DNA of 64,000 nt from a virus (IMGVR_UViG_3300034073_002131:34029-98028); one strand, 5' to 3'. Numbered from the stretch's first letter, positions 2,873 through 54,592 are shown. The notes: generated by a model from the letters alone, not told the origin. Numbers and translations: made by a program.

Positions 2873-3132
2873 TTTATACCTTCAAATAATTTGCGTTGAG
2901 TACGATACCACTCCTGCCACATACTAGACTTTAAGCTACAATCATGATATAGATGATAATTTTCTGTAACGGTTTTAGCCACATCGCTAAGTTTAGCATT
3001 TTGTTCTAGTGCTTTTAGTGTTGGGCATGGCTCTAGTAGTATATTAGGTGCTTCTGGAAATTTTGGTGTAAGTGGCACTGTGGTAGTACATCCTACAAGT
3101 ACTAAACTTACTAGTAATATTAAATATTTCAT
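2869..3132 (-). CDS. o-spanin (Rz1-like lipoprotein)
   Basis: Lipobox LVGC, Pro-rich, between i-spanin candidate and endolysin. Confidence 0.75.
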   Translation of the reverse strand: MKYLILLVSLVLVGCTTTVPLTPKFPEAPNILLEPCPTLKALEQNAKLSDVAKTVTENYHLYHDCSLKSSMWQEWYRTQRKLFEGIK

Positions 3133-3563: not shown

Positions 3564-3571
3564 TGTATCTC

Positions 3572-5655: not shown

Positions 5656-5670
5656 AATAACCTCTAAGTA

Positions 5671-6078
5671 TTAGGGATTAGTAGGTGGAGGCGGTGCTGG
5701 TACTGGTTCTGTAGGCGTTGTTATTTCAGACTGTGGTGCAGGCATTGGTTCGGGTACTGGTGCCCAAGGCATTTGTGTATCCGTTAGGCTCTGTTTTTCT
5801 AGCTCACGTTCAACTACTAATGCAATATGATCTTTAATACTAGGCAGTCTGAGTTCTTGTGCCTCAATCCACTCTATAACCATTTGCTCTGTAATCTGTT
5901 CTAGTGGTACAAAAGTTTGTTGTTCAGGATCAGCTAGTGTAGTAGTGTTTGGTAGTGCAAACTCTACTGTGCCGTCTTTGCCAGTAATAGTCCACTCAAC
6001 TCGTTTAATTACATTAGTTAGTCCATCTAGAGTATGAGTGTAAATTTTATTAGGTTTAATTGTATAGGTAATTGCCAT
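5671..6078 (-). CDS. Fibre-associated hypothetical protein
   Basis: FVPLEQITEQMVIEWI motif of a type seen next to fibre genes; Pro-rich tail. Confidence 0.55.
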   Translation of the reverse strand: MAITYTIKPNKIYTHTLDGLTNVIKRVEWTITGKDGTVEFALPNTTTLADPEQQTFVPLEQITEQMVIEWIEAQELRLPSIKDHIALVVERELEKQSLTDTQMPWAPVPEPMPAPQSEITTPTEPVPAPPPPTNP

Positions 6079-6087
6079 GTTTAATCC

Positions 6088-6591
6088 TTATTGTGGCGCT
6101 TGTGGCCAAATTATATTAGTTGGAAATTCTTGTTGATCAGTTAAATCACGGAGTTGTTGTCTATAAGTAGCCCACTGTTCTTTTTGTTCCGTGGTTAAAC
6201 TAACATCTGGTAACTGCGTCCAATCACTTTGTGTTAGTAAACGATTTCTTTCATATTTTGCATTATTAATTCTGTTTTGTTTTTCTATACTAGCTCTAAT
6301 AGTAGTTTGTGCTATTTCTTCGGGAGTTAAATTAACTATATCATAACCTAAAAGCATATATTCTTCGGTTATCTCAGCTACTTGTCTAGTTAATTTTTCT
6401 GGAGTATATTTTGGTACGAGTTTTTGAGTAGCCAAATTATACGCTGGTTCTGGGGCATACTCAAGTGGGTATATACCAAATGCTTTTAAAACACTAGTAG
6501 CTATAGGAGATTTAAAACTAGTATTAGGAAATAGCTTTCTAATTTCTATTTGGTTTTGTAAAATTTTACCAGTTGATTCTTGTATATACAT
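6088..6591 (-). CDS. Tail fibre assembly chaperone
   Basis: RNRLLTQSDWTQLPD...WATYRQQLRDL...WP motif. Confidence 0.85.
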   Translation of the reverse strand: MYIQESTGKILQNQIEIRKLFPNTSFKSPIATSVLKAFGIYPLEYAPEPAYNLATQKLVPKYTPEKLTRQVAEITEEYMLLGYDIVNLTPEEIAQTTIRASIEKQNRINNAKYERNRLLTQSDWTQLPDVSLTTEQKEQWATYRQQLRDLTDQQEFPTNIIWPQAPQ

Positions 6592-6609
6592 GTTTTATAT
6601 CTCTAAAAT

Positions 6610-8103
6610 TTAAGTGTATAAGTAAGTTGCCCAAGTGCCCGCACCAAAACCATTTGCTCCAGTACCCCCATTAATTGGGCTAGGTGGATTAATACTATTA
6701 TCATATGTAAATGATACTCCATATAAACTTCCCCCTTGGCCGTCTGCATTTGGAATAGTACCATACATAGCGGGCTCTTGTAGATGAAATCTAAAATTTA
6801 CTTGAGCTCCTTCTCCTGTAATACATTCTAAGTCTATATAATACCAAGGCGTAGAAGTATGGCCTGCATAAGGAGTTTCAAAATCATTTACTATATGATT
6901 GTAAAAAGCAGTAGCAAGTGTTGAGCCATTAGGAACACCGCCGGGGAATGTGCCATCATACCAATAAATAGTTAACTGAAAACTACTACTATCTATACTT
7001 ATACCATAGATATTATTACCAGATTGTTGAAGTGTAGTACTGCCACCTCCACCACCTCCACCACCTCCACCACCTCCACCACTTGGAGTATATTTAAACT
7101 GATATAAATAATATTTTGTAGAATCAGGAGCTGAGGAAAATATGCCTCCGTCTACTATTGTTGTTAATATAGTGCCGTCTGGACTAAGGCAACTATTATT
7201 AGGATAAATACTAGAATCTCCTACAAATTCATTAAGTTGATATATAGTGGCAGCTTCGGCGTTAGTTCTAGAAGTGGGCTGTGTATTACTTATTACTCCT
7301 CCATAATCCCATGAATTATTTCCAGAAGGTTTAGGGTAGTATACAAATGGTGTAGGATAGTTTAACGTATCCCATGTAATTAAATAATTTGCCGTAGCAC
7401 CTACAACAAATTCAGGATATGCCCAATATGGACTAGTTGCATTATAACCAGGATATGCTCCTTGCCAAAAAGGAATTGGAGTACTACCATAGTATGTATT
7501 AACAATAGTAGTTAAATTATAGGCCGTGTTTAGCTTGTATAGGGTAGCCGGATGATTACTACTTCCACTGGTTAAAAATGTAGTTCCGTTTCCTAAAAAT
7601 CTAAATCCATCTACTCCATTAGCAACGGGAACATACCCAGTATTTAGTCTGTACAAACTTTGACTAAAACCAGAATCTATTATTAAATTTGATACTTGAA
7701 AACCAATTTGTCCCGATGGTATATAATACCTATTAATAGTATTAGAATCAATATTACTAAAATATGCATAAAATCCTGTATTATCCCACTCTATAGATGA
7801 AGTTCTATTTCCCACTGTCCAATTAGGTAATTGATTTACTGAATAGTATTGAGGCTGGTTAGTACTTAGATCATATGGAGTAGATAGAACAAATCTTTGA
7901 ACCCAACCATCTCCTCCTGTAATATAAAACGCATCTCCAGCACTAGGCCCCGGTTTCCATGAAATATTTATATTAGAAGTAGTAATACTAACGCCGGTAG
8001 GTTTAGATAGTACAATAGGATTTGTAGTTAGTGGAGCCCACTCAGCCCAAAATCCTGTTAGAGATGTAGGTATAGGTTTTTTAAGTAGTAATGGATTTAA
8101 CAT
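6610..8103 (-). CDS. Putative tail/receptor-binding accessory protein with poly-Gly linker
   Basis: Beta-propeller-like repeats (LSTPYDLST, LNTAYNLTT), Gly run. Confidence 0.55.
   Translation of the reverse strand: MLNPLLLKKPIPTSLTGFWAEWAPLTTNPIVLSKPTGVSITTSNINISWKPGPSAGDAFYITGGDGWVQRFVLSTPYDLSTNQPQYYSVNQLPNWTVGNRTSSIEWDNTGFYAYFSNIDSNTINRYYIPSGQIGFQVSNLIIDSGFSQSLYRLNTGYVPVANGVDGFRFLGNGTTFLTSGSSNHPATLYKLNTAYNLTTIVNTYYGSTPIPFWQGAYPGYNATSPYWAYPEFVVGATANYLITWDTLNYPTPFVYYPKPSGNNSWDYGGVISNTQPTSRTNAEAATIYQLNEFVGDSSIYPNNSCLSPDGTILTTIVDGGIFSSAPDSTKYYLYQFKYTPSGGGGGGGGGGGGGSTTLQQSGNNIYGISIDSSSFQLTIYWYDGTFPGGVPNGSTLATAFYNHIVNDFETPYAGHTSTPWYYIDLECITGEGAQVNFRFHLQEPAMYGTIPNADGQGGSLYGVSFTYDNSINPPSPINGGTGANGFGAGTWATYLYT
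7043..7081. repeat. Tandem CCACCTCCA repeat encoding poly-Gly
   Basis: About four copies of a 9-mer. Confidence 0.85.
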
Positions 8104-8112
8104 TTATGATTC

Positions 8113-9309
8113 TCAAGTTGTTGTAGCTTTACCAACATGTAGGCCTGCTAGTCTAGACCCCCCGACACCAGGTACATAAACAGTCCAGAAAACAAAAATA
8201 TCTGGATAATCGGCATCATTAGTTAGAGTAGGCGCACTACTAGACCCTACCCATAACATAGGACTAGGATAAGTAATTGCTGTTGTGTTATACACATAAA
8301 CTACTGCAAATTCAGTTTCGTACGCACCACCAGATAAACCATTTGTAAGAGTTATACTACCACCACTACCATTTATTCTAAGATGTGCTCCGCTGTTTCC
8401 ATTGATTTGATGTGTGGAAGCACCGGAATAAGCATTCATTTGATTATATATGTTACCGTAAAAACTAACTGCATTTAGGTAAGGTGGTATAACTGGATAG
8501 TTACTGTAGTTGCCTTCATGAACTACAATATTGCCACCTACTTTAAGTACAGCACCTCCACTTTCTCCTGGATTATATACGTTTAAAGCACCATCACTAT
8601 CTAAGGCAATATGTCTAGTAGCAATGTTTTCATAATGCCAAGTTAGTGTAGGCTTGGCTCCACTGGCCCTAATTTCAGCAGGAAATGAGTGTCCTGACAT
8701 TCCACTAGTATTTCCACCATAGCTTGATGCATTAACTCTTACACCTAAAGTAACGTTAGTAGCAGTACCACCGCTTAGTGGAAGTGTATAGCTTGAATAG
8801 TTGCCGGCGTGAAGTACAGTATTACCACCAATAGTAATATTAAAGCCACTAGATACGCTTAAGTTATCGTCTATAGTAACTGCACCATTAAAATAACTAA
8901 TACCATTATTATAAAAGTCAAAGTTAGTATTATTAGCAGTGCCAATACCTAGCTGATTAACATGTGTAGTTCCCGCGACACGTAATTTATTGCCATTATC
9001 CGTACCAGTACCAACCAGTACATTACCACTATACTGTGCAAATTTAACTAGGCCGGTATCTAGGACTTCTATGCTGGGAATTCCACTTACGTCATTTACA
9101 CTATAAATAGTTCCGGTTAAACTATTAGTTACACTAAATAGCTGGCCAGCACTACCCTCTAGGCTAATAGTACCATTAGTAGTAGGATATACGCGTAGGG
9201 TAATTGTTTGTGGGCCTAGTGTGCTGCTTGCTCCAACAAACTCAATTTTAGGGTCGGCACTTTGCCCTATATTAGGAGTAATTAAAATATTTTTATCAGA
9301 CAAGGCCAT
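8113..9309 (-). CDS. Tail fibre-like protein
   Basis: Beta-rich; shares LHAGNY..Y.LPLSGG motif with the long fibre. Confidence 0.7.
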   Translation of the reverse strand: MALSDKNILITPNIGQSADPKIEFVGASSTLGPQTITLRVYPTTNGTISLEGSAGQLFSVTNSLTGTIYSVNDVSGIPSIEVLDTGLVKFAQYSGNVLVGTGTDNGNKLRVAGTTHVNQLGIGTANNTNFDFYNNGISYFNGAVTIDDNLSVSSGFNITIGGNTVLHAGNYSSYTLPLSGGTATNVTLGVRVNASSYGGNTSGMSGHSFPAEIRASGAKPTLTWHYENIATRHIALDSDGALNVYNPGESGGAVLKVGGNIVVHEGNYSNYPVIPPYLNAVSFYGNIYNQMNAYSGASTHQINGNSGAHLRINGSGGSITLTNGLSGGAYETEFAVVYVYNTTAITYPSPMLWVGSSSAPTLTNDADYPDIFVFWTVYVPGVGGSRLAGLHVGKATTT

Positions 9310-9328
9310 AGTTAATTCCTATTTGATG

Positions 9329-10582
9329 TTATATGCCGTAACGGCCTCTTAATGCGTAATAATTTTGAGCAGACTCATCCGCTGTTAGTTGACGATTATA
9401 CACTAATATTCTTGATAGTGTGCCGTTCATATTCCATGAGGTGCCATACCCAAACCAATCAAAAACTGTCCAGTTACTAAAATCTACACCTTTTGCTTCC
9501 CACATGTGATACACATTATTTCTATAATTTACTGGAGTAGCTGGATTTACTACAGTATTAAGATCTACGTAATTAACGGGACTACCACAGCCTTCATGAT
9601 AATAATTATTTCCATAACTTGCAGATAAATATACAGATCCACTGTTATTTCCTCTAACCCATAGCTCTTGTGTATCTGAAGTTTTATACCATAAAACTAC
9701 TGTGCAATTATTACTATTTCCTGTTAAAGAACTGCTTCTATTAAAACTATGAGATTCTGTAATATTAAAACTAGTTTTATCAGTAGTTAGAGTAGGCTGA
9801 CCATAAATTGTGTGATCGTTTCCTATACCACTAAGATCATATAATTTATTACCAGCATTAGTTAGTAGTTCAGATATTTTAGGTTCTGTACCGTCAACTA
9901 TATCAACTCTTGGTTGATACCATTGTTGATTAGTAGTAGTATCACTAGAGTAATATAGGAAACTGCGATGGTAAGAGTACGTATTTGTTGACTTCCATAG
10001 ATAATCTGTACAATTTAGTACTTTAGTTCCATTAGTATGATATACACCTGAATCTGGGTGTGTAGCACCTGTACCAGAATTAGCTGGCCAAATATGTCCA
10101 ACTACTAAATACCATTGATTAGCTGTAGCCCAACCCCAACCTTCTGCTGAAAAATATGGGTTTTGATTTGAGGCACCATTACTTCTATTTCTTACTTGTT
10201 GAGCATCTCCATCCCAAGCATGCGGCCCCATGTAAAAGTTACCATTACCTATAGTTTTTCTACGTACCCAAGTTGTATATCTATACATTTTATTAGGGTC
10301 AATAGTAAATGCAGAACCCCACCAACCACCATCTTCATCGCTTGCAGCATCTTGATTACTTACATCCCACACTACATCGGTAATACCAAACGGATTAGTA
10401 TCATTTATTCTTGAATTTCCATCACCATTTGTAGCATATCCAGTAGCTGCACCACTTGTACCAGCAATCCAAGAGTCCCAAGTAATAATAGAACGCCTAC
10501 CTTTACTAGATTTAGGATTTCCAATATCTAAATCTAATATTTTTCCTGCAGTAACAATATTTGGGCCTAAATATGTGCTCAT
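9329..10582 (-). CDS. LamG/concanavalin A-like lectin domain virion protein
   Basis: C-terminal ILVYNRQLTADESAQNYYALRGRYGI. Confidence 0.75.
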   Translation of the reverse strand: MSTYLGPNIVTAGKILDLDIGNPKSSKGRRSIITWDSWIAGTSGAATGYATNGDGNSRINDTNPFGITDVVWDVSNQDAASDEDGGWWGSAFTIDPNKMYRYTTWVRRKTIGNGNFYMGPHAWDGDAQQVRNRSNGASNQNPYFSAEGWGWATANQWYLVVGHIWPANSGTGATHPDSGVYHTNGTKVLNCTDYLWKSTNTYSYHRSFLYYSSDTTTNQQWYQPRVDIVDGTEPKISELLTNAGNKLYDLSGIGNDHTIYGQPTLTTDKTSFNITESHSFNRSSSLTGNSNNCTVVLWYKTSDTQELWVRGNNSGSVYLSASYGNNYYHEGCGSPVNYVDLNTVVNPATPVNYRNNVYHMWEAKGVDFSNWTVFDWFGYGTSWNMNGTLSRILVYNRQLTADESAQNYYALRGRYGI

Positions 10583-43753: not shown

Positions 43754-43891
43754 GGGTGTTCCGGTAGTTTTTTAAAGTGTATCATATTCTGCGGTTTGGG
43801 GTCAATGGTGAAATTTTTTGAGGTGTTACACGCGTGGGTGGGCGCAGCGACCTTCGGGTATGTCAAGTCAAAAAACCGCCCCTATTTTACA

Positions 43892-43920
43892 ATTATAGTC
43901 TAGTATGGTAGTCATGTCAA
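43892..43920 (-). promoter_or_regulatory. Leftward consensus sigma70 promoter
   Basis: TTGACA-17-TATAAT. Confidence 0.75.
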
Positions 43921-43930
43921 GGCCTGTCCA

Positions 43931-43975
43931 ATTGTATTTTTCTATGGCAGCCTGGACTCGATTAATAAATACAAT
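43931..43975. promoter_or_regulatory. Bipartite LysR-like inverted repeat, copy 1 of 4
   Basis: ATTGTATTTTTCTAT-N15-ATTAATAAATACAAT; related copies near 45050-45089, 45835-45875, 48618-48657. Confidence 0.6.
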
Positions 43976-44047
43976 CACAATTTACTTGCACAAAATTTTC
44001 AACCCTGTATAATTAAACACATCGAAGCACACAACCTGGTAAGCAAG

Positions 44048-44200
44048 ATGAAAAACACCTACACGATCAGTTACTACTTGCAAGGCAAGCAAGGCTCTGT
44101 TACACTACAGGCTCAAAGCGAGGATGAAGCTTGCCATCAAGTTAAGGCAATGCGCAAGGGTTGCCGTATTTTCCACGTTATGAATTATAATCTTTATTGA
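44048..44200 (+). CDS. 50-aa hypothetical protein
   Basis: Manual translation MKNTYTISYYLQGK...; follows promoter at 43986-44013. Confidence 0.5.
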   Translation: MKNTYTISYYLQGKQGSVTLQAQSEDEACHQVKAMRKGCRIFHVMNYNLY

Positions 44201-44207
44201 GGCTAAC

Positions 44208-44390
44208 ATGAAAAACATTCTAGGATTCTTTCTGGTTGTGCTGGCCGTCATTGTAATGGCCGGTACTGGTGGCGGAGCGGATACCATGCCGCCCGATGCT
44301 GGATTCGTGCAATGGGTTAGCCTTGCTTGCCTTGCACTAGGCGCGCTGGCTTCTGGATTCGTTGGGGTTCTTTTGATGCTTGAAGATTGA
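44208..44390 (+). CDS. Small two-TM membrane protein
   Basis: Hydrophobic segments, GAGG SD. Confidence 0.6.
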   Translation: MKNILGFFLVVLAVIVMAGTGGGADTMPPDAGFVQWVSLACLALGALASGFVGVLLMLED

Positions 44391-44393
44391 AAA

Positions 44394-44717
44394 ATGACTA
44401 CTGAAAAAACCGTGAATTATACCGCCGAACAAACCCTTAAACTTGTGGCCGACTACAAGGCGGGCACTAGCGTTGAGGATATCGCTAAAGGAATGGGTAA
44501 ATCTGTTCGGTCGATTGTTGCTAAACTCTCACGCGAAGGCGTATACCAGAAAAAGGAATACACAACCAAAACGGGCGAGGCTCCCGTCAAAAAGGATGAG
44601 CATGCCGATATGATCGGCAAGGCCTTGAACCTTAGCGAAGGGGACACCGATTCGCTTGCCAAGGCTAACAAGCGCGCGCTTGCCGCGATTGTGGAATTTA
44701 TCAAGGCTCGGGCTTGA
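44394..44717 (+). CDS. T5 A2-like HTH DNA-binding protein, copy 1
   Basis: NYT.EQT...Y...IA...GKSVRSIVAKLSREGVY; recalled similarity to T5 A2. Confidence 0.7.
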   Translation: MTTEKTVNYTAEQTLKLVADYKAGTSVEDIAKGMGKSVRSIVAKLSREGVYQKKEYTTKTGEAPVKKDEHADMIGKALNLSEGDTDSLAKANKRALAAIVEFIKARA

Positions 44718-44765
44718 CAATAGGGGCGCAAGCCCCTATAATAGAATCTTTACTAGGGGGATGAG

Positions 44766-44960
44766 ATGGGCTTTTTAACGCGCAGGGAACGCTACGATTT
44801 GCTTTGTGCTGTAAAGCGTGGAGACAACCCTAAGATTCTGCAACGTGCGCTAACTGTTGAGGAGGAGGAATTTGTCAAGGAATTCGCTACCGAAGAGTTC
44901 GACAAGATTATGCAAGACCCCGAAATTGTGGCGGTAATGCAACGATTGCTCGATATATAG
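44766..44960 (+). CDS. Hypothetical protein
   Basis: Own promoter TTGACA-17-TATAAT at about 44714-44742. Confidence 0.55.
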   Translation: MGFLTRRERYDLLCAVKRGDNPKILQRALTVEEEEFVKEFATEEFDKIMQDPEIVAVMQRLLDI

Positions 44961-44967
44961 GCCTGGT

Positions 44968-45033
44968 AGCGTGTTGTATTTTTACAACACGCTGGCGCCA
45001 AAATTATATCATATAATTTTGGCGGGTGTCAAG
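44968..45033 (-). repeat. Cassette: TGTTG palindrome plus hairpin-embedded leftward promoter
   Basis: GTGTTGTATTTTTACAACAC; CGCCAAAATTATATCATATAATTTTGGCG-GGTGTCAAG. Confidence 0.8.
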
Positions 45034-45134
45034 GGCTCTGGCAAAAATATTTTTCTATGGGCTTGGCTGGGTCGATTAAAAAATACAATCAATAAAGGGT
45101 TGCACAACACTGGAAAGCCTGTATAATTCTCTAC

Positions 45135-45389
45135 ATGAACACAACACCTGGGAACAAAATGATGAACGATCCACAACAGATTATTGACCATGCAATGCAA
45201 TGTGGCGCGATTTGGGCTGGCATTGATAACCTTGCACTTCACAAGGATCGCAAAGCAGTTGCGGCATCGTTTCCACACTCACATGATGCGGAAGAATTCG
45301 TGTATCATGTATGGGATTGGTTGGACGATCACGGCTTCGAGGGTTTGCAAGTAACCCATGACGAAGAATTTGTTTTAATCTGGCTCTGA
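45135..45389 (+). CDS. Hypothetical protein
   Basis: ORF after promoter near 45100-45127. Confidence 0.55.
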   Translation: MNTTPGNKMMNDPQQIIDHAMQCGAIWAGIDNLALHKDRKAVAASFPHSHDAEEFVYHVWDWLDDHGFEGLQVTHDEEFVLIWL

Positions 45390-45398
45390 AACTTAACC

Positions 45399-45746
45399 TT
45401 GAAAGGGTTTATCATGCGCAACAAATTTGATTTTGTTTATCGTCGTAACCTTCTGGCCGACCTTGAAGGCGAAGGTGGTTCGCTTGTGTATGATGTTGAT
45501 GAAGGCATCACGGTTGCCGTTCGGCCGAGCGTACCCGAATCGTGGGCGCGTAATTCCGTGAATTGGGTAAAAATTGCGGTTGCCTACTGTTCAGACATTG
45601 ATACCTATGACCCGCTCAAAGGCGAGATTCTGGCAATGGAACGGGCTTTTCAGGGTGAGACGGTTTCGTTTCCCCGTATGCCCGGTGAAACCACGCTGGA
45701 AGTTGCACTGAACTTTTTGCGGTTTGTCAAGGGTGACGTAAACTAA
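45399..45746 (+). CDS. Hypothetical protein
   Basis: ORF; AVAYCS..D.Y...KG pattern. Confidence 0.6.
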   Translation: MKGFIMRNKFDFVYRRNLLADLEGEGGSLVYDVDEGITVAVRPSVPESWARNSVNWVKIAVAYCSDIDTYDPLKGEILAMERAFQGETVSFPRMPGETTLEVALNFLRFVKGDVN

Positions 45747-45754
45747 GGTAAACC

Positions 45755-45819
45755 CCAGGTGTTGCCTTTTAGCAACACCTGGGCGCCAATTTTATCATAT
45801 AAAATTGGCGGGTGTCAAG
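45755..45819 (-). repeat. Cassette: TGTTG palindrome plus hairpin-embedded leftward promoter
   Basis: CCAGGTGTTGC...GCAACACCTGG; CGCCAATTTTATCATATAAAATTGGCG-GGTGTCAAG. Confidence 0.8.
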
Positions 45820-45912
45820 GGCTTGGGCAAAAAATTTTTTCTATGGGCATGCGCGTGTGGATTAAAAAATACAATGGGACTTGGCTTGCTGTAGGCTAAA
45901 TTTTCCTGTACT

Positions 45913-46263
45913 ATGTTGTTTATGAACTCAAACCCGCTCATGAAACCCTGGTACGATGCCTGCCAAATTTGGCCGGAATTGGAACTCTACAATCCGCCGA
46001 CCTTCAAAATCTCGGAACGGCTTACCCGTACCGCTGGCTTGTGTATTGTGGAGACTGGCGAGATTACCTTGTCCGGACCATACTTGCGCGAATACCGCAA
46101 TTATATGATGGGACAAATTCTCACCCATGAGACTGCGCATTATATCGACTACTGTTTAAACGGTTGGCACAAATATAAGCGTCATCATGGCAAGCAATGG
46201 CAGGAAATCATGTATAATCTAGGCTACAAACCCGAACCCTTTCACACAATGGAATTGAGATAA
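45913..46263 (+). CDS. SprT-like zinc metalloprotease
   Basis: RLTRTAG...I.LS...HETAH...HGKQW. Confidence 0.8.
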   Translation: MLFMNSNPLMKPWYDACQIWPELELYNPPTFKISERLTRTAGLCIVETGEITLSGPYLREYRNYMMGQILTHETAHYIDYCLNGWHKYKRHHGKQWQEIMYNLGYKPEPFHTMELR

Positions 46264-46736
46264 TGGCAATCAAGCGAATCAGAATTTACGATATGGATGG
46301 CACAATTGTATGCTCCTTGCATCGTTACCGGACCATTATTGATGAGCGTGGCGAGCGTATCGACCTAGAATATTGGCGCGAGAATGAATACCGCGCGCTT
46401 GACGATTCCCTGCTACCGCTAGCAGAACAATATCGCGCAGACCTTGCCGATCCTGAATGCTATACCATCATTGCCACTGCGCGCGTACTAGGTGAACCAG
46501 ATATGCAATTTATTAGGGAGACACTAGGCGAACCCGATTATATCGTTTCCCGTAAATCGGGCGATACGCAATCGGGTCGAACTCTGAAAATCGGTGGGCT
46601 AGCAAAGTTTTTTAATCTTGTCAACTTCAAAACCGATGACGTTATCTTTTATGAAGATAACGCGGAATATCTGAAAGCCGTTTGTGACCGGTTTGATATC
46701 CGTGGAGTTTACATTCCAAGCCGTCAAGGGCACTAG
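46263..46736 (+). CDS. HAD-superfamily phosphatase
   Basis: DMDGT motif I, TAR motif II, YEDN motif IV. Confidence 0.8.
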   Translation: MAIKRIRIYDMDGTIVCSLHRYRTIIDERGERIDLEYWRENEYRALDDSLLPLAEQYRADLADPECYTIIATARVLGEPDMQFIRETLGEPDYIVSRKSGDTQSGRTLKIGGLAKFFNLVNFKTDDVIFYEDNAEYLKAVCDRFDIRGVYIPSRQGH

Positions 46737-46737
46737 A

Positions 46738-46761
46738 CAAACCGGGCAAATGCCCGGTTTT
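46738..46761 (+). terminator. Intrinsic terminator
   Basis: AAACCGGGCAAATGCCCGGTTTT. Confidence 0.8.
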
Positions 46762-46775
46762 ATTTTGCCCACCAA

Positions 46776-46795
46776 GTTAGTAAGCACTTACTAAC
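46776..46795. promoter_or_regulatory. SlmA-binding-site-like palindrome, copy 1
   Basis: GTTAGTAAGCACTTACTAAC. Confidence 0.6.
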
Positions 46796-46800
46796 TTGAC

Positions 46801-46987
46801 CTGGGCGCCAAATTTTATCATATAAAATTTGGGCGTGTCAAGGACCAAATTGTAACAATGTGTAACTGTTGCTTTTTTACCACGGGCACGATTTTATCAC
46901 TAAAATCGTGCCCGTGTCAAGGACCAAATTGTAACAATATGTAACAAGGCCTGGTCGTGTCGTTTTTTGTACACAAGGGTTTCCCCT
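46801..46987. repeat. Double cassette: two hairpin promoters, each followed by a TGTAAC-N4-TGTAAC box
   Basis: GTGTCAAGGACCAAATTGTAACAAT(G/A)TGTAAC twice. Confidence 0.85.
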
Positions 46988-47083
46988 ACTAGAAAATTTT
47001 GCACGGGGCTGAATTGTGTGCTATTATCTGGGTGTGGCACTTGTCACGCGCGATTTCCGGCGCTTTCCGGTAAAGGGTAGAAA

Positions 47084-47782
47084 ATGGCTCGCAAACAATT
47101 CTTTTGTATAGTTGACACTGAAACCACAATCGAGGATACCGTAGCCGATTTTGGCGCGTTAATCTGCGACCGTGAAGGCAAGATTTTTACGCAATGCGCG
47201 GTTTTGGTTCGTGGTGAATATGGGGATAAAACCCTTTTTCACGATAAAGCAAAATCCGATATTTGGGGATATGCTGGCTTGCATAAGCGCGAACAGGATT
47301 ATATCGCAATGCTAGATTCTGGTTTGCGTATGCTTGCAAGCGTACAGGCGATTAATCGCTGGCTTGCCCTTGCGGTTGGTAAATATAATCCCATTCTCAC
47401 GGCATATAATCTAAACTTTGACGAGGGTAAATGTCGGAATACCGGAATTGACCTTCAATTATTTACCGATCGGTTTTGCTTGTGGCAAGCGGCGATAGGT
47501 AACGTCTGCGGAACCCGCAAATATCGTCAATTTTGCCTTGAAAATCACCTATTTAATCCGCCGACCGACAAGGGTAATATGTCATTTAAAACTACTGCGG
47601 AATCGGTTTGCGGATTTATTCAAGGCAAATTCAAAACGGAACCCCATACCGCCATCGAGGATGCGCGCGATTTTGAATTGCCGATATTAACCGGGATTGT
47701 CAAGCGTAAAGGTTGGCGCGATAATCTTAAAGCCCATACATGGTATGATTTTCAGGTAAAAAACCACTTCAAGGCGATTTAA
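47084..47782 (+). CDS. DEDDh 3'-5' exonuclease
   Basis: DTETT, AYN..FD, HTAIEDA. Confidence 0.85.
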   Translation: MARKQFFCIVDTETTIEDTVADFGALICDREGKIFTQCAVLVRGEYGDKTLFHDKAKSDIWGYAGLHKREQDYIAMLDSGLRMLASVQAINRWLALAVGKYNPILTAYNLNFDEGKCRNTGIDLQLFTDRFCLWQAAIGNVCGTRKYRQFCLENHLFNPPTDKGNMSFKTTAESVCGFIQGKFKTEPHTAIEDARDFELPILTGIVKRKGWRDNLKAHTWYDFQVKNHFKAI

Positions 47783-47783
47783 T

Positions 47784-48038
47784 ATGATGGATGCAATCGG
47801 TATTATTGGCTCGATTGCATTCGCAACCTGCGCAATTCCGCAGGTTGTAGAATGCTACCGTAAACGATCCGCTGAAGGTTTGTCGTGGATGTTTTTAATC
47901 TTGTGGGCTATTGGCGAAATATTTACCATTATTTATATCTGGCCTAAACAAGATTGGATTTTACTCGGTAATTATTTCTTTAATTCGCTTTGCCTTGCGG
48001 TTATGATTTTCTTTAAAATTGAGGATACTAGAAAATGA
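47784..48038 (+). CDS. PQ-loop / SemiSWEET-like membrane protein
   Basis: IPQVVECYRKRSAEGLS; three TMs. Confidence 0.8.
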   Translation: MMDAIGIIGSIAFATCAIPQVVECYRKRSAEGLSWMFLILWAIGEIFTIIYIWPKQDWILLGNYFFNSLCLAVMIFFKIEDTRK

Positions 48039-48382
48039 TTTTCCACAAATCAGATATTGAACTATTTCAGCGAATTGCGGAAACTGAAATTCGAATCCGC
48101 AAACCCGTTGTTTTGCAGGTTCAGAAAACCGTGAAACTAAATTCCGATTGGTGCATTGGCCTATGGGAAGATGAATGGGATTATCATTCTATTAAAATCT
48201 CACGCGCTGAAATTTGGAATCCCGTAGAATTATTCGCTACCATTATTCACGAATATGTCCATGCGTGGCAATCGGAAAATAACCTACCCGTAAACCATTC
48301 TCCTTCAGGTTATTTTCCACATTGGCGAAAATATTTTAGGCGATACTATGGCGTTAATATTGCAGGATTAAACCATGCGTAA
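48035..48382 (+). CDS. Zincin-like metallopeptidase
   Basis: TIIHEYVHAWQ...H. Confidence 0.7.
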   Translation: MIFHKSDIELFQRIAETEIRIRKPVVLQVQKTVKLNSDWCIGLWEDEWDYHSIKISRAEIWNPVELFATIIHEYVHAWQSENNLPVNHSPSGYFPHWRKYFRRYYGVNIAGLNHA

Positions 48383-48490
48383 AATAATCGTTTGCGGGTT
48401 TTTGCTTGCCTTTTTAATTGCGGATAGGCGATACCCGGAATTAAAGATTGAAACTCAATATTTAATTCCGCATATTACGCTTGTGGTATA

Positions 48491-48520
48491 AATAAAAACC
48501 CCGAATAGGGGTTTTTATTT
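48491..48520. terminator. Bidirectional terminator
   Basis: AATAAAAACCCC-GAATA-GGGGTTTTTATT. Confidence 0.8.
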
Positions 48521-48530
48521 ACCAGGCTAA

Positions 48531-48550
48531 GTTAGTAAGCACTTACTAAC
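48531..48550. promoter_or_regulatory. SlmA-binding-site-like palindrome, copy 2
   Basis: Identical to 46776-46795. Confidence 0.6.
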
Positions 48551-48560
48551 TTGCTTTTGC

Positions 48561-48600
48561 TGGCGCCAAATTTTATCATATAAAATTTGCTCGTGTCAAG
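48561..48600 (-). repeat. Hairpin-embedded leftward promoter cassette
   Basis: GGCGCCAAATTTTATCATATAAAATTTGCTCGTGTCAAG. Confidence 0.8.
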
Positions 48601-48746
48601 GGGGTTTTTGAAAAAAATTTTTCTATGGGCTTGCCCTAGTCGATTAAAAAATACAATCACGCTACCAGGGCACGGGGCTGAATTTTCGTGTAGAATTCTT
48701 TTTGTGGCGAGTGCATGGGGCGCTTGCCCGAACTAGGGAAACTGTC

Positions 48747-49073
48747 ATGGCTGAAAAAACCGTGAACTACACTGCGGAACAAACCGCGAAACTTGTGGCC
48801 GACTATCAAGCCGGTGTAACCGTGGAATCAATTGCGGAAGGGTTGGGCAAATCAGTTCGAAGCATCGTGGCGAAACTGTCACGCGAGGGTGTTTACCAGA
48901 AAAAGGTTTATACCACAAAAACGGGCGAACCCGTTCAGAAAAAGGATATGACAGCCGACGCAATCGGTCGAATCTTGAACCTTTCGGAAAGCGATACCGA
49001 TTCGCTCACCAAAGCGAACAAGCGTGCTTTGAAAGCGATTTTCGAAGCGCTTGCAAACTCGAAACCCCTGTAA
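48747..49073 (+). CDS. T5 A2-like protein, copy 2
   Basis: Highly similar to 44394-44717; start MAEKTVNY. Confidence 0.75.
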   Translation: MAEKTVNYTAEQTAKLVADYQAGVTVESIAEGLGKSVRSIVAKLSREGVYQKKVYTTKTGEPVQKKDMTADAIGRILNLSESDTDSLTKANKRALKAIFEALANSKPL

Positions 49074-49120
49074 ACTGAAAAAACCCTAGGCTTTAGCCTA
49101 GGGTTTTGAAGGGATAAATT

Positions 49121-49306
49121 ATGCTCAATCATTCTGTTATCGCTATAATGCGCGATGGTGAAGGCTTTGTATCCGTTGGGTATGGTACTGATCCAGAATC
49201 AGCACTGCAAGATTTGCAAGCAAATCTTGATGAAGAACTTTTAGACCATCGAATGATAACCTTTTACCGTTCGATGGACGTTAAAATTAAACTGTGCATA
49301 GAATAG
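49121..49306 (+). CDS. Hypothetical protein
   Basis: ORF with SD, followed by terminator 49326-49348. Confidence 0.5.
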   Translation: MLNHSVIAIMRDGEGFVSVGYGTDPESALQDLQANLDEELLDHRMITFYRSMDVKIKLCIE

Positions 49307-49310
49307 CCTA

Positions 49311-49325
49311 GCATAATTCGTGCCA
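49311..49325 (-). promoter_or_regulatory. sigma54 -24/-12 site
   Basis: TGGCACGAATTATGC (GG-N10-GC). Confidence 0.6.
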
Positions 49326-49364
49326 GCCCCGAAAGGGGCTTTTTTTTTGTGTCCAGACCCAGCC

Positions 49365-49398
49365 CGGCACGTTTTTTGCCTTAGCAAGAATCGTGCCA
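49365..49398. promoter_or_regulatory. Two head-to-head sigma54 -24/-12 sites
   Basis: CGGCACGTTTTTTGC (+) and TGGCACGATTCTTGC (-), 4 bp apart. Confidence 0.75.
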
Positions 49399-49402
49399 GG
49401 TC

Positions 49403-49495
49403 TGGGCGCCGATTTTATCATATAAAATCGGGTGGTGTCAAGCGCAGAATTGTAACAATTTGTAACTGTTGCTTTTTTGTGTCAGGGTTTCCCCT
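49403..49495. repeat. Hairpin promoter plus TGTAAC box plus AGGGTTTCCCCT
   Basis: Same modules as 46801-46987. Confidence 0.8.
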
Positions 49496-49546
49496 AATTG
49501 ACACCGGCCCGGCGCGTATGCTATACTAGAAGGTTCGGGGTTTTCT

Positions 49547-49567
49547 AAATGCGAATGATTCTCATTT
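49547..49567. promoter_or_regulatory. Fur box-like site
   Basis: AAATGCGAATGATTCTCATTT; core AATGAGAATCATT vs Fur AATGATAATCATT. Confidence 0.7.
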
Positions 49568-49574
49568 GCACCAA

Positions 49575-49589
49575 GCAAGATTCGTGCCA
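49575..49589 (-). promoter_or_regulatory. sigma54 -24/-12 site
   Basis: TGGCACGAATCTTGC. Confidence 0.75.
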
Positions 49590-49595
49590 GCCATA

Positions 49596-49615
49596 GTTAG
49601 TGAGCGCTTACTAAC
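49596..49615. promoter_or_regulatory. SlmA-binding-site-like palindrome, copy 3
   Basis: GTTAGTGAGCGCTTACTAAC. Confidence 0.65.
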
Positions 49616-49620
49616 CTCCA

Positions 49621-49707
49621 GGGGGGGGGTTGCGCCAGTGCAAAACCTTGTCAAGTGCAAAATCTTGCGCGTGCGCCAGTGCAAAACCTTCAAGTGCAAA
49701 ATCTTGG
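49621..49707. repeat. G9 tract plus near-perfect ~36-bp direct repeat x2
   Basis: TGCGCCAGTGCAAAACCTT(GT)CAAGTGCAAAATCTTG twice. Confidence 0.85.
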
Positions 49708-49845
49708 GGTTGCCTGTGAGTGCTAAACCTTGTATAATATTTATATTGAGTCAGTGATCAAGGCGTCCAAACCCTAAAAAATCCTGACTTGATTCCCAAG
49801 CCTAATCCCTGTATAATATTTATATTGATTGATTGGAGAACCCAA

Positions 49846-50154
49846 ATGACTGACAAAGTAATGAACTATACCCCTGAACAGGTTCAGGAACTGGTCCAGA
49901 AGTATCAGCAAGGCGTTAGCGTTGAGCAACTGGCCGAGCAAGTAGGTAAATCCGTGCGTTCGGTGGTTGCTAAGCTGAGCCGCGAGGGTGTGTATGTGGC
50001 TAAGACTCGGAACACACAGGCGGCCCGAGTCACCAAAGCTGAGCTGGTAGAGCGCATCGCCCGAGTATGCGATCGTAATAGTGAACAGTTTGAAAGCCTA
50101 GAAAAAGCAAATCAGGATGTTTTGACCCGCCTGGTCGAAGTGCTCAAAGCCTGA
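49846..50154 (+). CDS. T5 A2-like protein, copy 3
   Basis: NYTPEQ...GKSVRSVVAKLSREGVY; GGAG SD; two tandem promoters upstream. Confidence 0.75.
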   Translation: MTDKVMNYTPEQVQELVQKYQQGVSVEQLAEQVGKSVRSVVAKLSREGVYVAKTRNTQAARVTKAELVERIARVCDRNSEQFESLEKANQDVLTRLVEVLKA

Positions 50155-50208: not shown

Positions 50209-50602
50209 TATTATTTATAGTTTGGGAAGGGCGATATAGATCGCACAAACAGAGTCCACTTAGCCAACTACAAGTGTACATACCTAAGTATTGGACTCAA
50301 GTTTGATTCCCAAACTATCTACTATACTTTATTACTAGGGCGACAGCGGTCACAGCGATATACTACTGCTATGTGATACGTCTTAATTGTGGAGAACTAC
50401 ATGACCGAGCCACAGCCCCACTCTCAGAAAGGCAGCAGTTAGTTACTGCTAGCAGATGGTAATATTGGTCTGTAGTTTTATAATGTCTGGCTCTGCTGGC
50501 GCTTGAGGCTAGTATGGGGTATCAGTAAATACTCCAGAACACAATATAGCGAGCAACCAGACCCTAAACTAGAGCAATCCCAACCATCGTTGCTGCTTTT
50601 CC

Positions 50603-50695
50603 CCTATTCCTCTGATGAGCTCACCGAGAGCGAAACCCAAACCCGAAAACTGGTGCCCCATGCCCAGCAGACTACGGTTTAGGGTCAGGAATTGG
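50603..50695 (+). ncRNA. Hammerhead ribozyme (type I topology), predicted cleavage after C50686
   Basis: Stem I AUUCCU/AGGAAU; CUGAUGA; stem II GCUC/GAGC; GAAA; stem III CCC-AAACC/GGUUU-A-GGG; GUC triplet. Confidence 0.88.
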
Positions 50696-50765
50696 TCCTT
50701 TCACTTCCCGGTCTGCCAGGACGCTAAACTGTGCAGGGACGGCACAACCCTAAAAGTGCCTAGTC

Positions 50766-50797
50766 AAGCCCACCAGTGCAAACTGGTGGGCTTTTTT
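50766..50797 (+). terminator. Intrinsic terminator
   Basis: AAGCCCACCAGT-GCAA-ACTGGTGGGCTTTTTT. Confidence 0.9.
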
Positions 50798-50817
50798 ATT
50801 TGAGGTTAGGCGCCCCT

Positions 50818-50847
50818 ATTATACAGTGCTAAAGCAATATGTGTCAA
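50818..50847 (-). promoter_or_regulatory. Leftward sigma70 promoter facing ncRNA 3' end
   Basis: TTGACA-18-TATAAT then GGGGCGCC. Confidence 0.6.
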
Positions 50848-53412: not shown

Positions 53413-53739
53413 TCAAAACATTTTTGTATGGTCAGTAATGCTATAACCGTGGAGGTTTAGTTTGCTTCGTGTGGGAATATTACCTCGCACATACTCATAC
53501 TTAACAAACTTTCCCAAGCCTTGATCAATTTCTTTTACAGTCTTTCCATGCCAAGGCTTGCCAAGGGTGTATTTGACTTTTACCCACTTTGCATTGTTTT
53601 CGGGAGTGCCTGTGTACTCACTTTTAAAACTGTAGTAATCACTGTGACCACCACTCATAGAAACAATATTTAGTGGACGACACCAGTCTTCTGGGTGAAT
53701 GTGATCACTATCTTCAAGAACTTGAATGGAGATCATCAT
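53413..53739 (-). CDS. Hypothetical protein
   Basis: Coupled ORF. Confidence 0.6.
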   Translation of the reverse strand: MMISIQVLEDSDHIHPEDWCRPLNIVSMSGGHSDYYSFKSEYTGTPENNAKWVKVKYTLGKPWHGKTVKEIDQGLGKFVKYEYVRGNIPTRSKLNLHGYSITDHTKMF

Positions 53740-54077
53740 TCAACTCCGAAATGTTGTTTAATTTCTTGATAGATTTCAAGACGAATACGCTGTTCTTTTG
53801 ACATACCATATTCTTCCCATCGGATAAGCCTAGCACATTCCCGGACAATCAACTCGGCGAACTTTTGTAAATTGACAGTTTCTTGTACCGTAAGTGTTGA
53901 TGGCACATACATCCTATACCTATCAAACTTTAACCCAGCCTGTTCAGCAAGTTCTCGAATTCGTTCGTTCATCTTGATAAATCTTCCTACATTCTTACCG
54001 CTTTTGACAATTGTTAGTTCTTGACCAATGGTAATACCACCATGTTTGTCAAGGGTTTTAAATTGTTCGTTCATCAT
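53736..54077 (-). CDS. FGVE-family small protein
   Basis: MNERIRELAEQA...KFAELIVREC...KQHFGVE. Confidence 0.7.
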   Translation of the reverse strand: MMNEQFKTLDKHGGITIGQELTIVKSGKNVGRFIKMNERIRELAEQAGLKFDRYRMYVPSTLTVQETVNLQKFAELIVRECARLIRWEEYGMSKEQRIRLEIYQEIKQHFGVE

Positions 54078-54385
54078 TCAACTCCAAAATGTTTCTTTAC
54101 GTCCTTCACAGCCAAATCGGCAGGCCGGGTTCTAAGTTCCACAAAGATATCGCAACATTCCCTAACAATCAACTGGGCGAACTTTTCAGGATTCAGCACA
54201 TAGACGTAATTGCTATACATCTCACCAGGCTTGGCACCAGCACCACCGTATTGAAACTTTTCCTCTAGCGATTGTTCGTAAAGTTCTAGAATTCGTGGGT
54301 TCATCTTTGTCTCTGACTGTTTTGTTTTGGGCATCGGTGGTATTTGCTTTGGTATCGGTAAACCAAACTCATCAAACTTTGTCAT
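54074..54385 (-). CDS. FGVE-family small protein
   Basis: MNPRILEL...KFAQLIVREC...KKHFGVE. Confidence 0.7.
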   Translation of the reverse strand: MTKFDEFGLPIPKQIPPMPKTKQSETKMNPRILELYEQSLEEKFQYGGAGAKPGEMYSNYVYVLNPEKFAQLIVRECCDIFVELRTRPADLAVKDVKKHFGVE

Positions 54386-54592
54386 TCATTCAACTCCAAA
54401 ACGTCCTTTGAAATACTTTTGATAATCAATATCCGTATCTCCCTTTGCATATTCTGCATATGCTGCACATTCCAGAATAATCAACTCGGCGAACTTTTCT
54501 GGATTCAGTTCCATATAAGAACCACCTAAACCTTCAACACCTGTTGACTCCATTGCCTGATTCATTAGTTCTTGAATTCGTAGGTTCATCAT
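54386..54592 (-). CDS. FGVE-family small protein
   Basis: MNLRIQEL...KFAELIILEC...RFGVE. Confidence 0.7.
   Translation of the reverse strand: MMNLRIQELMNQAMESTGVEGLGGSYMELNPEKFAELIILECAAYAEYAKGDTDIDYQKYFKGRFGVE

Follow-up and report, generated by a model that had tools for sequence, protein, structure and literature searches.

The 64,000-nt window analyzed here forms the end of a virus record that consists of one contig of 98,028 bp (IMGVR_UViG_3300034073_002131; G000), and all positions below are those of the window unless another sequence is named. Judged from its gene content and order, the segment at 43.9–50.85 kb is a T5-type pre-early region. The reading that we favor, with confidence somewhat above even, is that this region consists of composite promoter/hairpin cassettes in which backward promoters act as a brake or insulator, and that its right end holds the counterpart of the injection stop signal (iss) of T5. 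A first-pass annotation had described the segment as a modular array of binding sites for host proteins, mostly regulating no adjacent gene, which could serve as a decoy or landing strip for those proteins.

The large terminase (TerL) encoded left of the segment was found to be 47–49% identical to those of T5-like phages (Demerecviridae) of Vibrio, Serratia, and Yersinia, so the source phage is taken to be an uncultured, distant relative of T5 with a siphovirus-type genome. The record represents a circular assembly, since its ends share a 126-bp overlap. The order of terL-terS, pre-early block, gene-free gap, and early genes in the window corresponds to that of T5 and of Vibrio phage PG07, with the segment (approximately 43.9–50.85 kb) lying between terS/terL and the early genes. 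In the T5 record, the left terminal repeat (1–10219) holds the leftward genes dmp, A1, and A2, followed by rightward small genes, and the gene-free iss at 9140–10149 closes that gene series. PG07 (L213, accession no. MH645904), which was deposited as a circle, shows terL, terS, dmp/A1/A2, small rightward genes, a 1.4-kb gene-free gap, and early genes. Besides a Dmp homologue, the segment was shown to encode three paralogues of 102–108 aa that match phrog_1725 (E 1e-5 to 1e-6), a family that also takes T5 A2 and the PG07 protein in the A2 position; a profile of the three paralogues aligned with T5 A2 over nearly the full length (hhalign, E 3.4e-4, probability 38%). TerL kinship, synteny with T5 and PG07, the Dmp homologue, and the A2-family paralogues thus agree with the first-pass annotation on a T5-type pre-early segment. 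By homology, the segment would be the first-entering DNA and is probably terminally repeated. Unitig depth over 43.9–50.66 kb was 1.2–3.9 times that of either flank in four runs of one study (Logan contigs). This would fit a collapsed terminal repeat, but as weak evidence, given the mixture of strains and given that the depth of contigs does not measure copy number.

All modules listed in the first-pass annotation were found, and in the same numbers. Leftward promoters of the form TTGACA-N17/18-TA(T/A)AAT occur seven times in the range covered by that annotation, and six of them are palindromic (45003–45032, 45789–45818, 46812–46841, 46891–46920, 48570–48599, and 49412–49441, from −10 to −35); an eighth leftward promoter (50818–50847) lies beyond that range, and the block thus extends to approximately 50.85 kb. 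The motifs GTTAGT-N8-ACTAAC (46776, 48531, 49596) and TGTAAC-N4-TGTAAC (46851, 46930, 49451) were each present three times. The pair TTTTCTATGG..ATTAAWAAATACAAT (43938/43961, 45051/45075, 45837/45861, 48619/48643) and sigma54-like boxes (49311, 49365, 49384, 49575) were each present four times, full TGTTG..CAACA hairpins (44968–44993, 45754–45783) and AGGGTTTCCCCT (46976, 49484) twice, and a Fur-like palindrome once (49547–49567). A regular-expression scan of the 98,028-bp genome showed each module motif to be confined to 43.9–50.85 kb, except for TGTCAAG[GC], of which a few chance copies were found outside. Nine of the 13 genome matches to TTGACA-N16-19-TAnAAT fell inside the segment, which makes up approximately 7% of the genome, and TGGCACG-N4-TTGC with at most one mismatch occurred five times in the window compared to 0.66 expected, four of these within 280 bp. 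The repeated modules are genuine, and the resemblance to sigma70 and sigma54 promoters extends to exact consensus matches.

The hexamer GGCGCC occurs six times in the 98-kb genome, and each copy follows the −10 of a leftward promoter at a distance of 1–3 nt. Base composition predicts, by our own estimate, approximately six copies genome-wide, and none was found beyond the six promoter-linked ones, which suggests that GGCGCC is avoided elsewhere in the genome, e.g., as a restriction site, or has a dedicated function.

The intergenic gaps appear to be copies of one composite cassette. From left to right, such a cassette would begin where a rightward operon ends, with a terminator and/or an interchangeable hairpin, and would continue with GGCGCC, a leftward sigma70 promoter, an A-rich UP-like box, and the weaker rightward promoter of the next operon. 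The leftward promoter is predicted to be very strong, having a consensus −35, a TG-extended −10, and a UP element or TGTAAC repeat upstream. All leftward promoters combine a 17–18-nt spacer with TATAAT or TAAAAT, and six carry TG before the −10. A perfect palindrome of 10–16 bp with a 1–4-nt loop is formed by spacer and −10 together in six of the promoters. GGCGCC follows six of the eight. These consensus promoters are on the minus strand, antisense to all genes of the segment, and all genes with family matches and ribosome-binding sites were found on the plus strand, so that leftward protein-coding genes were rejected. Two types of element were found upstream of the leftward −35: AAAAATATTTT at 10–11 nt (three copies), which we take to be the distal subsite of the UP element (consensus AAAWWTWTTTT) at its canonical position, and TGTAAC-N4-TGTAAC at exactly 9 nt (three copies). 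On the other side, the end of ATTAAWAAATACAAT is exactly 10 nt from the rightward −35 hexamer in all four copies. Since ATTAAWAAATACAAT and the UP subsite are thus held in fixed register, the CTAT..ATTAAAAAATACAAT module would be the upstream zone common to two promoters placed back to back. Likewise, AGGGTTTCCCCT is located 2 or 11 nt upstream of rightward −35 hexamers, and related GGGAAACCCCTA elements abut TTGACA in relatives.

A hairpin was found a few nt past the predicted start at five of the six GGCGCC-bearing leftward promoters. This slot is occupied by TGTTG..CAACA (twice), GTTAGT..ACTAAC (twice), or an inverted repeat of two sigma54-like boxes (once); at the sixth promoter (50818–50847) the first hairpin is the reversed terminator of a putative ncRNA (50766–50793), approximately 15 nt past GGCGCC. 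With one slot holding differing hairpins, the modules that had been likened to LysR and SlmA sites, and part of those likened to sigma54 sites, are better regarded as alternative occupants of that slot than as separate regulator sites, and in relatives unrelated palindromes take the same place. The fixed offsets of the modules from promoter hexamers also speak against the proposal that they mostly regulate no adjacent gene, and from these registers host RNA polymerase would be the protein for which most modules are built.

Relatives were collected from IMG/VR by means of a 232-aa pre-early protein (10 loci) and of the small terminase TerS (80 loci), at 56–99% identity; a nucleotide search of a phage collection with the whole segment gave no match in near or distant mode. 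In the terS-anchored metagenome loci (TerS 56–99% identical), 172 distinct consensus-promoter windows were compared. A perfect palindrome of at least 8 bp was present in 79 of these, compared to 14 of 3,440 shuffled windows (0.4%). All 79 palindromic windows were on the terS strand, and 78 had GCGC within 8 nt downstream. The palindrome arms varied among copies (e.g., CGCCAAAATTATAT, CCGATTTTAT, CACGGGCACGATTTTA), with self-complementarity kept in each, and the −10 variant (TATAAT or TAAAAT) was mirrored in the opposite arm. Arms that vary and yet remain complementary argue for selection on base-pairing rather than on the half-site of one protein. The 134 distinct downstream regions were nearly all found to fold into a strong hairpin of variable sequence. 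In relative L041, promoters of the palindromic type are likewise antisense to small genes.

From this arrangement we infer that transcription from the backward promoters would proceed into the hairpin and into the upstream operon at its 3′ end, and that these promoters may act as an antisense brake or as an insulator between independently promoted gene cassettes. The palindrome would be a structure-forming modulator of the promoter, either as a DNA cruciform or as an RNA hairpin. In addition, the conserved promoter core may double as a homology patch for swaps of gene cassettes, as in the promoter-early stem-loop cassettes (PeSLs) of T4-type phages. Relatives at approximately 80% nucleotide identity were found to be syntenic and to differ by whole-gene indels bounded by cassettes (44703–44958 and 49067–49319 relative to L002). 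Contigs of strain variants part exactly at 45000 (at GGCGCC) and at 45035/45037 (immediately beyond the −35). A different hairpin ahead of the same GGCGCC was observed in one variant, and another variant joined 46794, in a GTTAGT palindrome, to 49637. Hairpin promoters of the N4 type were rejected as an explanation, as the phage has no virion polymerase gene and its large open reading frame (ORF) encodes a tape-measure protein.

The same hairpins could also be read as the 5′ ends of short stable RNAs that are made from the leftward promoters and act in trans or as OOP-like antisense RNAs. Two such RNAs of approximately 70 nt, with starts near 46805 and 48563, are predicted to end at reversed terminators. 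This reading agrees with the predicted strength of the promoters, with the position of the hairpin just past the predicted start in nearly all of the 134 distinct copies, and with the bidirectional terminator (48489–48521) beyond the GTTAGT hairpin. We nevertheless consider it very doubtful: most leftward paths have no T-run past the hairpin, the hairpin sequence varies between cassettes, and G-U pairs in the slot hairpins favor the opposite RNA sense (173 in the rightward compared to 93 in the leftward sense). Besides, a Rfam scan of 43.5–51.5 kb gave only weak terminator-like matches and no known RNA family for the hairpins, no family other than a terminator-like match being found at E <0.01.

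It is highly improbable, in our view, that GGCGCC and the hairpins mark single-strand interruptions of the T5 type, or form cruciforms with a function in replication or packaging, and that the likeness to promoters is secondary. The major nicks of T5 have the consensus R/GCGCRGG (PMC3517423). The nick annotated in the T5 terminal repeat lies on the minus strand, where GCGC is followed by a hairpin, and adjoins GTGCAAATCC repeats; correspondingly, when the minus strand is read, each of the six GGCGCC of the genome under study is part of TTTGGCGCC(C)AG and is immediately followed by a hairpin, and TGCGCCA is located ahead of GTGCAAAA repeats. However, the T5 consensus is matched only in part, and the −35, the spacer length, and the TG-extended −10 are kept exactly to the needs of sigma70. 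The major nicks of T5 are, moreover, spread over its genome and not clustered in the repeat, which also counts against a nick function.

We regard the gene-free end of the block (49.3–49.7 kb), on the evidence of shared motifs and position, as the counterpart of the T5 iss/Repeat Region 3. No conserved ORF was found in 49310–49845. The T5 iss was found to contain the repeat AAATGAGAATCATT together with nine GTGCRAATCC (DRD) repeats located after the GCGC annotated as the major nick of the repeat; in the window, AAATGAGAATCATT is followed by GTGCAAAAYC repeats in the same order and on the same strand as in the T5 iss, with TGCGCCA before alternate repeats. With at most one mismatch allowed, AAATGAGAATCATT was present in T5 as 3+3 exact copies in the iss plus one 1-mismatch copy at 24426, and in PG07 (four copies) and the present genome (one copy) only in the iss-like gap. 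In three relatives it was located within or near the pre-early block, and reversed-pattern controls gave no match. GCGC followed by GTGCAAA repeats, to the right of AAATGAGAATCATT and on the same strand, was shared by T5, the window, relative L084, and L051. L084 (approximately 60% TerS identity) also keeps a sigma54 box, a AATGCGAATCATTCTCATT palindrome, GTTAGT palindromes, and CTGCGCCAGTGCAAAACCTT; its sigma54 box is likewise aimed at the palindrome, in the opposite orientation. The gene-free end probably serves pausing of DNA transfer and/or processing of the terminal repeat. A replication-origin function for the GTGCAAA repeats was considered and rejected for lack of support. The stretch that separates the third GTTAGT palindrome from the GCGC-GTGCAAA repeats includes nine consecutive G (49621–49629), with a one-base length variant at 49621 in run X3.

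The right end is also where sigma54-type boxes cluster. The boxes at 49384 and 49575 match the −24/−12 consensus of sigma54 (RpoN) promoters, TGGCACG-N4-TTGC, and also agree with the extended consensus at its flanking Y, R, and W; those at 49365 and 49384 are the arms of the inverted repeat that fills the hairpin slot, and a rightward terminator is located at 49325–49340. The exact consensus was found twice here (plus two 1-mismatch copies), three times within 80 bp of the pre-early region in relative G001, three times in PG07 (112 kb; all pre-early), and not in T5. In PG07, two of the three sites are intergenic, upstream of rightward small genes (106930–110100), where DnaA boxes and AAATGATAATCATT copies identical to the Fur core were also observed. 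In the window, no ORF was found downstream of any sigma54 site, and a search of the phage genome for the sigma54 activator PF00158 was negative, although an activator might be supplied by the host.

The Fur-like box of the first-pass annotation stands as a motif and was shown to be the same as the T5 iss repeat AAATGAGAATCATT; its likeness to a Fur box is partial. Compared to the textbook 19-bp Fur-box consensus GATAATGATAATCATTATC, the window copy matches at 14 of 19 positions, and at 12 of 13 positions of the core AATGATAATCATT in our own alignment. DnaA boxes (TTWTNCACA) were not enriched, as 12 were found in the window compared to 9.5 expected and none in the gene-free block.

The proposed resemblance of the GTTAGT palindromes to SlmA sites was confirmed. 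Sites of Escherichia coli SlmA are 12-bp palindromes in which positions 1, 2, 4, and 5 are G, T, A, and G, position 3 is a purine, and position 6 is a pyrimidine (PMC3020112). The inner 12 bp of the three GTTAGT..ACTAAC palindromes obey this GT-R-AG-Y rule in both half-sites: GTAAGC/ACTTAC (twice) and GTGAGC/GCTTAC. Unlike the E. coli sites, each forms part of a 20-bp conserved palindrome in the hairpin slot, and the rules are those of E. coli whereas the host is probably a betaproteobacterium. In the distant relative L066 (reverse complement), approximately 6675 nt to the right of terS, the hairpin slot ahead of GGCGCC and of a leftward promoter with palindrome was found to hold GTTAGTGAGTACTCACTAAC; its inner 12 bp, GTGAGTACTCAC, are the exact published E. 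coli SlmA consensus (PMC3020112).

These likenesses are the basis for reading the region as a landing strip on which proteins abundant in the host (sigma70 or sigma54 RNA polymerase, SlmA, OmpR- or LysR-type regulators, and Fur) would settle. They would ratchet in, anchor, or mask the entering DNA, or the regulators among them would be titrated by it. Eight consensus promoters without a gene to drive, exact sigma54 boxes that have no downstream gene in a phage without an activator gene, and the confinement of such boxes to the pre-early region of PG07 and relatives all fit this proposal, as do the SlmA-like palindromes, the near match of the iss motif to the Fur core, and the binding of host DnaA that Davison proposed for the T5 iss (10.1101/866236). 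The modules are, however, held in fixed promoter registers, several of the supposed regulator sites swap within one hairpin slot, DnaA boxes are not enriched, and the likeness to OmpR and LysR sites rests on short degenerate motifs. Titration in particular is quantitatively implausible by our own estimate, as 1–8 sites on one entering DNA copy would face hundreds to thousands of proteins per cell. The landing strip as a whole is thus quite unlikely, and the data speak against the decoy function that the first-pass annotation had put forward. Anchoring or pausing at the iss-like right end is possible, and comes close to Davison's hypothesis for T5 with DnaA, in which paired DnaA boxes are a conserved feature of the iss (10.1101/866236). 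A narrower version, to which we give a low but slightly better chance, is that the right end is a host-factor docking site across T5-like phages, where sigma54 closed complexes and/or Fur, together with polymerase on the backward promoters, would pause, anchor, or cap the first-entering DNA; if so, the block would be the physical basis of the T5-type injection stop.

The right end could equally be bound by proteins of the phage itself. The three A2-like proteins are candidates for binding there, possibly along with sigma54 holoenzyme and Fur, and are at least as likely as host proteins to do so. Extended to the whole block, this would make the palindromes and direct repeats operators bound by the three A2-family paralogues, the sites being the promoter palindromes, GTTAGT..ACTAAC, the AAATG.GAAT palindrome, the double TGTAAC, and GTGCAAAAYC. 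The paralogues would switch off the pre-early promoters or set their timing and would have a part in second-step DNA transfer, so that this explanation overlaps with the one we favor. It draws on the presence within the block of three A2-family genes, of which one adjoins the iss-like gap; on the annotation of T5 A2 as a DNA-binding protein required for DNA transfer; on the palindrome over the −10 and spacer, a classical operator position; and on some palindromes and the double TGTAAC that are unchanged in relatives at approximately 60% TerS identity. Against it, the arms of the promoter palindromes differ within one genome and are perfectly self-complementary, which points to structure over half-site, and the slot after the promoter is occupied by unrelated palindromes. 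Operators bound by the A2-like proteins therefore appear unlikely as the general explanation, though a serious one.

Several points weigh against the cassette reading with its backward promoters and iss counterpart. Leftward termination is uncertain because the T-runs of the terminators face rightward, and the supposed brake could instead be a long antisense RNA or nothing. The G-U bias hints that the slot hairpins act also, or mainly, at the 3′ ends of gene transcripts and not in leftward RNAs. In addition, GTTAGT..ACTAAC and the exact SlmA consensus of L066 are slot palindromes whose sequence is kept across distant relatives, and this sequence-specific conservation suggests protein recognition besides structure. 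Regarding the T5 parallel, the A2 kinship of the three paralogues is remote, no A1 homologue was found by tblastn with T5 A1 over the genome at E up to 1, and terminal repetition and two-step entry are inferences; Logan contig depth is no copy number. T5 lacks palindromic pre-early promoters and sigma54 boxes, and its DnaA boxes are not enriched here; functional homology with the T5 iss is therefore only partial.

T5 repeat regions and PeSLs are already known kinds of element, and the block shows likeness to both. Like the T5 iss, its end is located at the right of the pre-early block beside the early genes, is gene-free and dense in repeats, inverted repeats, and palindromes, carries AAATGAGAATCATT and GCGC-GTGCAAA-type repeats in the same order and on the same strand, and has Dmp and A2-family genes nearby. 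Unlike the T5 iss, it measures approximately 0.4 kb compared to approximately 1 kb, contains sigma54 boxes, shows no DnaA enrichment, and lacks an A1 match; besides, repeat modules here fill all intergenic gaps as promoter cassettes, whereas the pre-early promoters of T5 are not palindromic. PeSLs are units of a stem-loop and an early sigma70 promoter in T4-type phages (PMC2839356, PMC4122927). As in PeSLs, a terminator or stem-loop with an early sigma70 promoter is repeated between small variable early genes, and cassettes are found at indel boundaries between related genomes. The present cassettes differ in belonging to a T5-like siphovirus-type lineage, PeSLs being found in T4-type myoviruses with the promoter directed along the genes, and in having their strongest promoter antisense, within a perfect palindrome and followed by GGCGCC, with extra modules upstream.

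A known parallel in orientation is lambda pO/OOP (a host-type promoter that reads back into an early gene from just beyond its 3′ end), with which the backward promoters share their position beyond the gene 3′ end. Here, however, there are eight near-consensus promoters, one per operon, without a consistent terminator, and the RNAs are predicted only. The T5 promoters N25 and D/E20 are very strong sigma70 pre-early promoters with A/T-rich upstream sequence. The leftward promoters described here resemble them in predicted strength, A/T-rich upstream sequence, and location on first-entering DNA, but those of T5 drive the leftward genes dmp, A1, and A2, and here there are no leftward genes. The boxes at 49384 and 49575 have the exact −24/−12 consensus of sigma54 promoters, and differ from such promoters in having neither a downstream gene nor a phage PF00158 protein and in that two copies are the arms of one hairpin. 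Literature searches gave nothing relevant on sigma54 promoters in T5-like pre-early regions, no description of a palindromic backward promoter array with GGCGCC and a hairpin slot, and no report of iss motifs common to a very distant lineage or of sigma54 boxes confined to pre-early regions.

The stop and restart of DNA entry in T5-type phages, and the role of the untranslated repeats, have been unsolved for decades. The lineage described here reveals cis elements that survived deep divergence, namely AAATGAGAATCATT palindromes and GCGC-GTGCAAA (shared with T5) and sigma54 boxes (shared with Vibrio PG07), and the shared motifs make up a short list of mutable sites in T5 or PG07. If the backward promoters indeed work as an antisense brake, as a switch that responds to supercoiling, or as a recombination core, they would bear on the timing and shuffling of host-takeover genes in lytic phages. 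Coordinates of all features are collected in Table 1.

Table 1. Features of the pre-early region and its left neighbour (promoters, terminators, hairpins, and protein functions are predictions)
Feature	Position	Strand	Evidence
terS (small terminase), left neighbour of the segment	43286–43753	−	phrog_3802, E 2.6e-34
Consensus sigma70 promoter TTGACA-N17-TATAAT, leftward, no palindrome, upstream of terS	43892–43920	−	
TTTTCTATGG; UP-like box ATTAATAAATACAAT (43961–43975); rightward promoter TTGCAC-N16-TATAAT with TG before −10 (43986–44013)	43938–44013	+	
A2-family DNA-binding paralogue 1, 107 aa	44394–44717	+	phrog_1725, E 1.6e-6
Rightward consensus promoter TTGACA-N17-TATAAT, 8-bp hairpin in spacer	44714–44742	+	
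Hairpin slot: TGTTG..CAACA, 11-bp stem	44968–44993		
GGCGCC; 14-bp perfect palindrome (44996–45024) with −10, then −35 TTGACA; extended −10 leftward promoter	44994–45032	−	
Shared upstream zone: AAAAATATTTT 11 nt from leftward −35; UP-like box 45075–45089; rightward promoter 45100–45127	45044–45127		
Second cassette: hairpin 45754–45783; GGCGCC 45782–45787; 12-bp palindrome 45784–45810; leftward promoter 45789–45818	45754–45818	−	
UP distal subsite 45829–45839; UP-like box 45861–45875; rightward promoter 45886–45914	45829–45914		
SprT-like protein gene	45913–46263	+	PF10263, E 2e-16
Dmp homologue (HAD-type 5′-deoxynucleotidase)	46263–46736	+	tblastn with T5 pre-early Dmp: 32% identity/100 aa, E 4.8e-11
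Third cassette: rightward terminator 46739–46767; GTTAGT..ACTAAC hairpin 46773–46798; GGCGCC 46804–46809; palindrome 46808–46832; leftward promoter 46812–46841	46739–46841		
TGTAAC-N4-TGTAAC, 9 nt upstream of leftward −35	46851–46866	+	
Tandem second leftward promoter (46891–46920); 16-bp palindrome of different sequence (46881–46916); own double TGTAAC (46930–46945)	46881–46945	−	
AGGGTTTCCCCT, then rightward promoter TTGCAC-N17-TATTAT for genes 47084–48491	46976–47027	+	
Fourth cassette: bidirectional terminator 48489–48521; GTTAGT hairpin 48529–48552; GGCGCC 48562–48567; palindrome 48567–48589; leftward promoter 48570–48599	48489–48599		
UP distal subsite 48611–48621; UP-like box 48643–48657; weak rightward promoter GGGCAC-N17-TAGAAT	48611–48696		promoter by eye
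A2-family DNA-binding paralogue 2	48747–49073	+	phrog_1725 and hhalign
Three sigma54-type boxes: 49311–49325 (minus, 1 mismatch); 49365–49379 (plus, 1 mismatch); 49384–49398 (minus, exact)	49311–49398		
GGCGCC; palindrome 49409–49431; leftward promoter 49412–49441; double TGTAAC 49451–49466	49405–49466	−	
AGGGTTTCCCCT, then rightward promoter TTGACA-N18-TATACT reading into the gene-free block	49484–49527	+	
Palindrome AAATGCGAATGATTCTCATTT; minus strand holds exact T5 iss repeat AAATGAGAATCATT at 49554–49567	49547–49567		
Exact sigma54 consensus TGGCACGAATCTTGC, aimed at palindrome 49547–49567	49575–49589	−	
Third GTTAGT..ACTAAC palindrome, one G.T position	49596–49615		
Two copies of TGCGCCA + GTGCAAAACCTT.. 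+ GTGCAAAATCTT; four GTGCAAAAYC repeats (49638–49703)	49631–49705	+	
Two rightward promoters, extended −10 of TGTATAAT type, for paralogue 3	49710–49817	+	
A2-family DNA-binding paralogue 3; also above the Pfam GcrA cut-off	49846–50154	+	phrog_1725
Terminator 50766–50793; GGCGCC 50809–50814; eighth leftward consensus promoter 50818–50847, without palindrome	50766–50847		

The cassette at 50766–50847 is the probable right edge of the block. To its left, a non-coding stretch runs from promoter to terminator at 50215–50797; a hammerhead at 50603–50695 was looked for in the Rfam scan (E up to 1), which lists none there and only a terminator-like BjrC68 match at 50731–50801. The rightward promoter at 44714–44742 is predicted to drive a 64-aa gene (44766–44960) that is not present in close relatives. 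The 232-aa pre-early protein (47084–47782) was found to be 88–92% identical in relatives; its sole match was phrog_20187 (function unassigned), with no match in Pfam. Structural genes occupy the minus strand up to 43,753; among them are terS, terL, portal and capsid/protease genes, and an ORF for a tape-measure-like protein of 2,751 aa.

A betaproteobacterial host is probable, as judged from a permuted two-piece transfer-messenger RNA (tmRNA) encoded outside the window (contig positions 8482–8858 of G000; L092:683–1059), which matched Rfam beta_tmRNA with 143 bits and tmRNA_permuted with 126 bits. The tag given by ARAGORN, ANDETFALAA, is common to many Burkholderiaceae, Neisseriaceae, and some gammaproteobacteria; being this widespread, it names no host, and only the beta_tmRNA match indicates Betaproteobacteria. 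The DNA was detected in metagenomes of subsurface and soil samples that belong to one study and, in small shares, in runs from freshwater. Within the early genes, strain variation was concentrated at 53739–54505 in each of the four metagenome runs, with dozens of joints, loose ends, swapped stretches of 37–39 nt, and a rise in summed depth of up to approximately tenfold; this stretch looks like a hypervariable or repeated cassette region.

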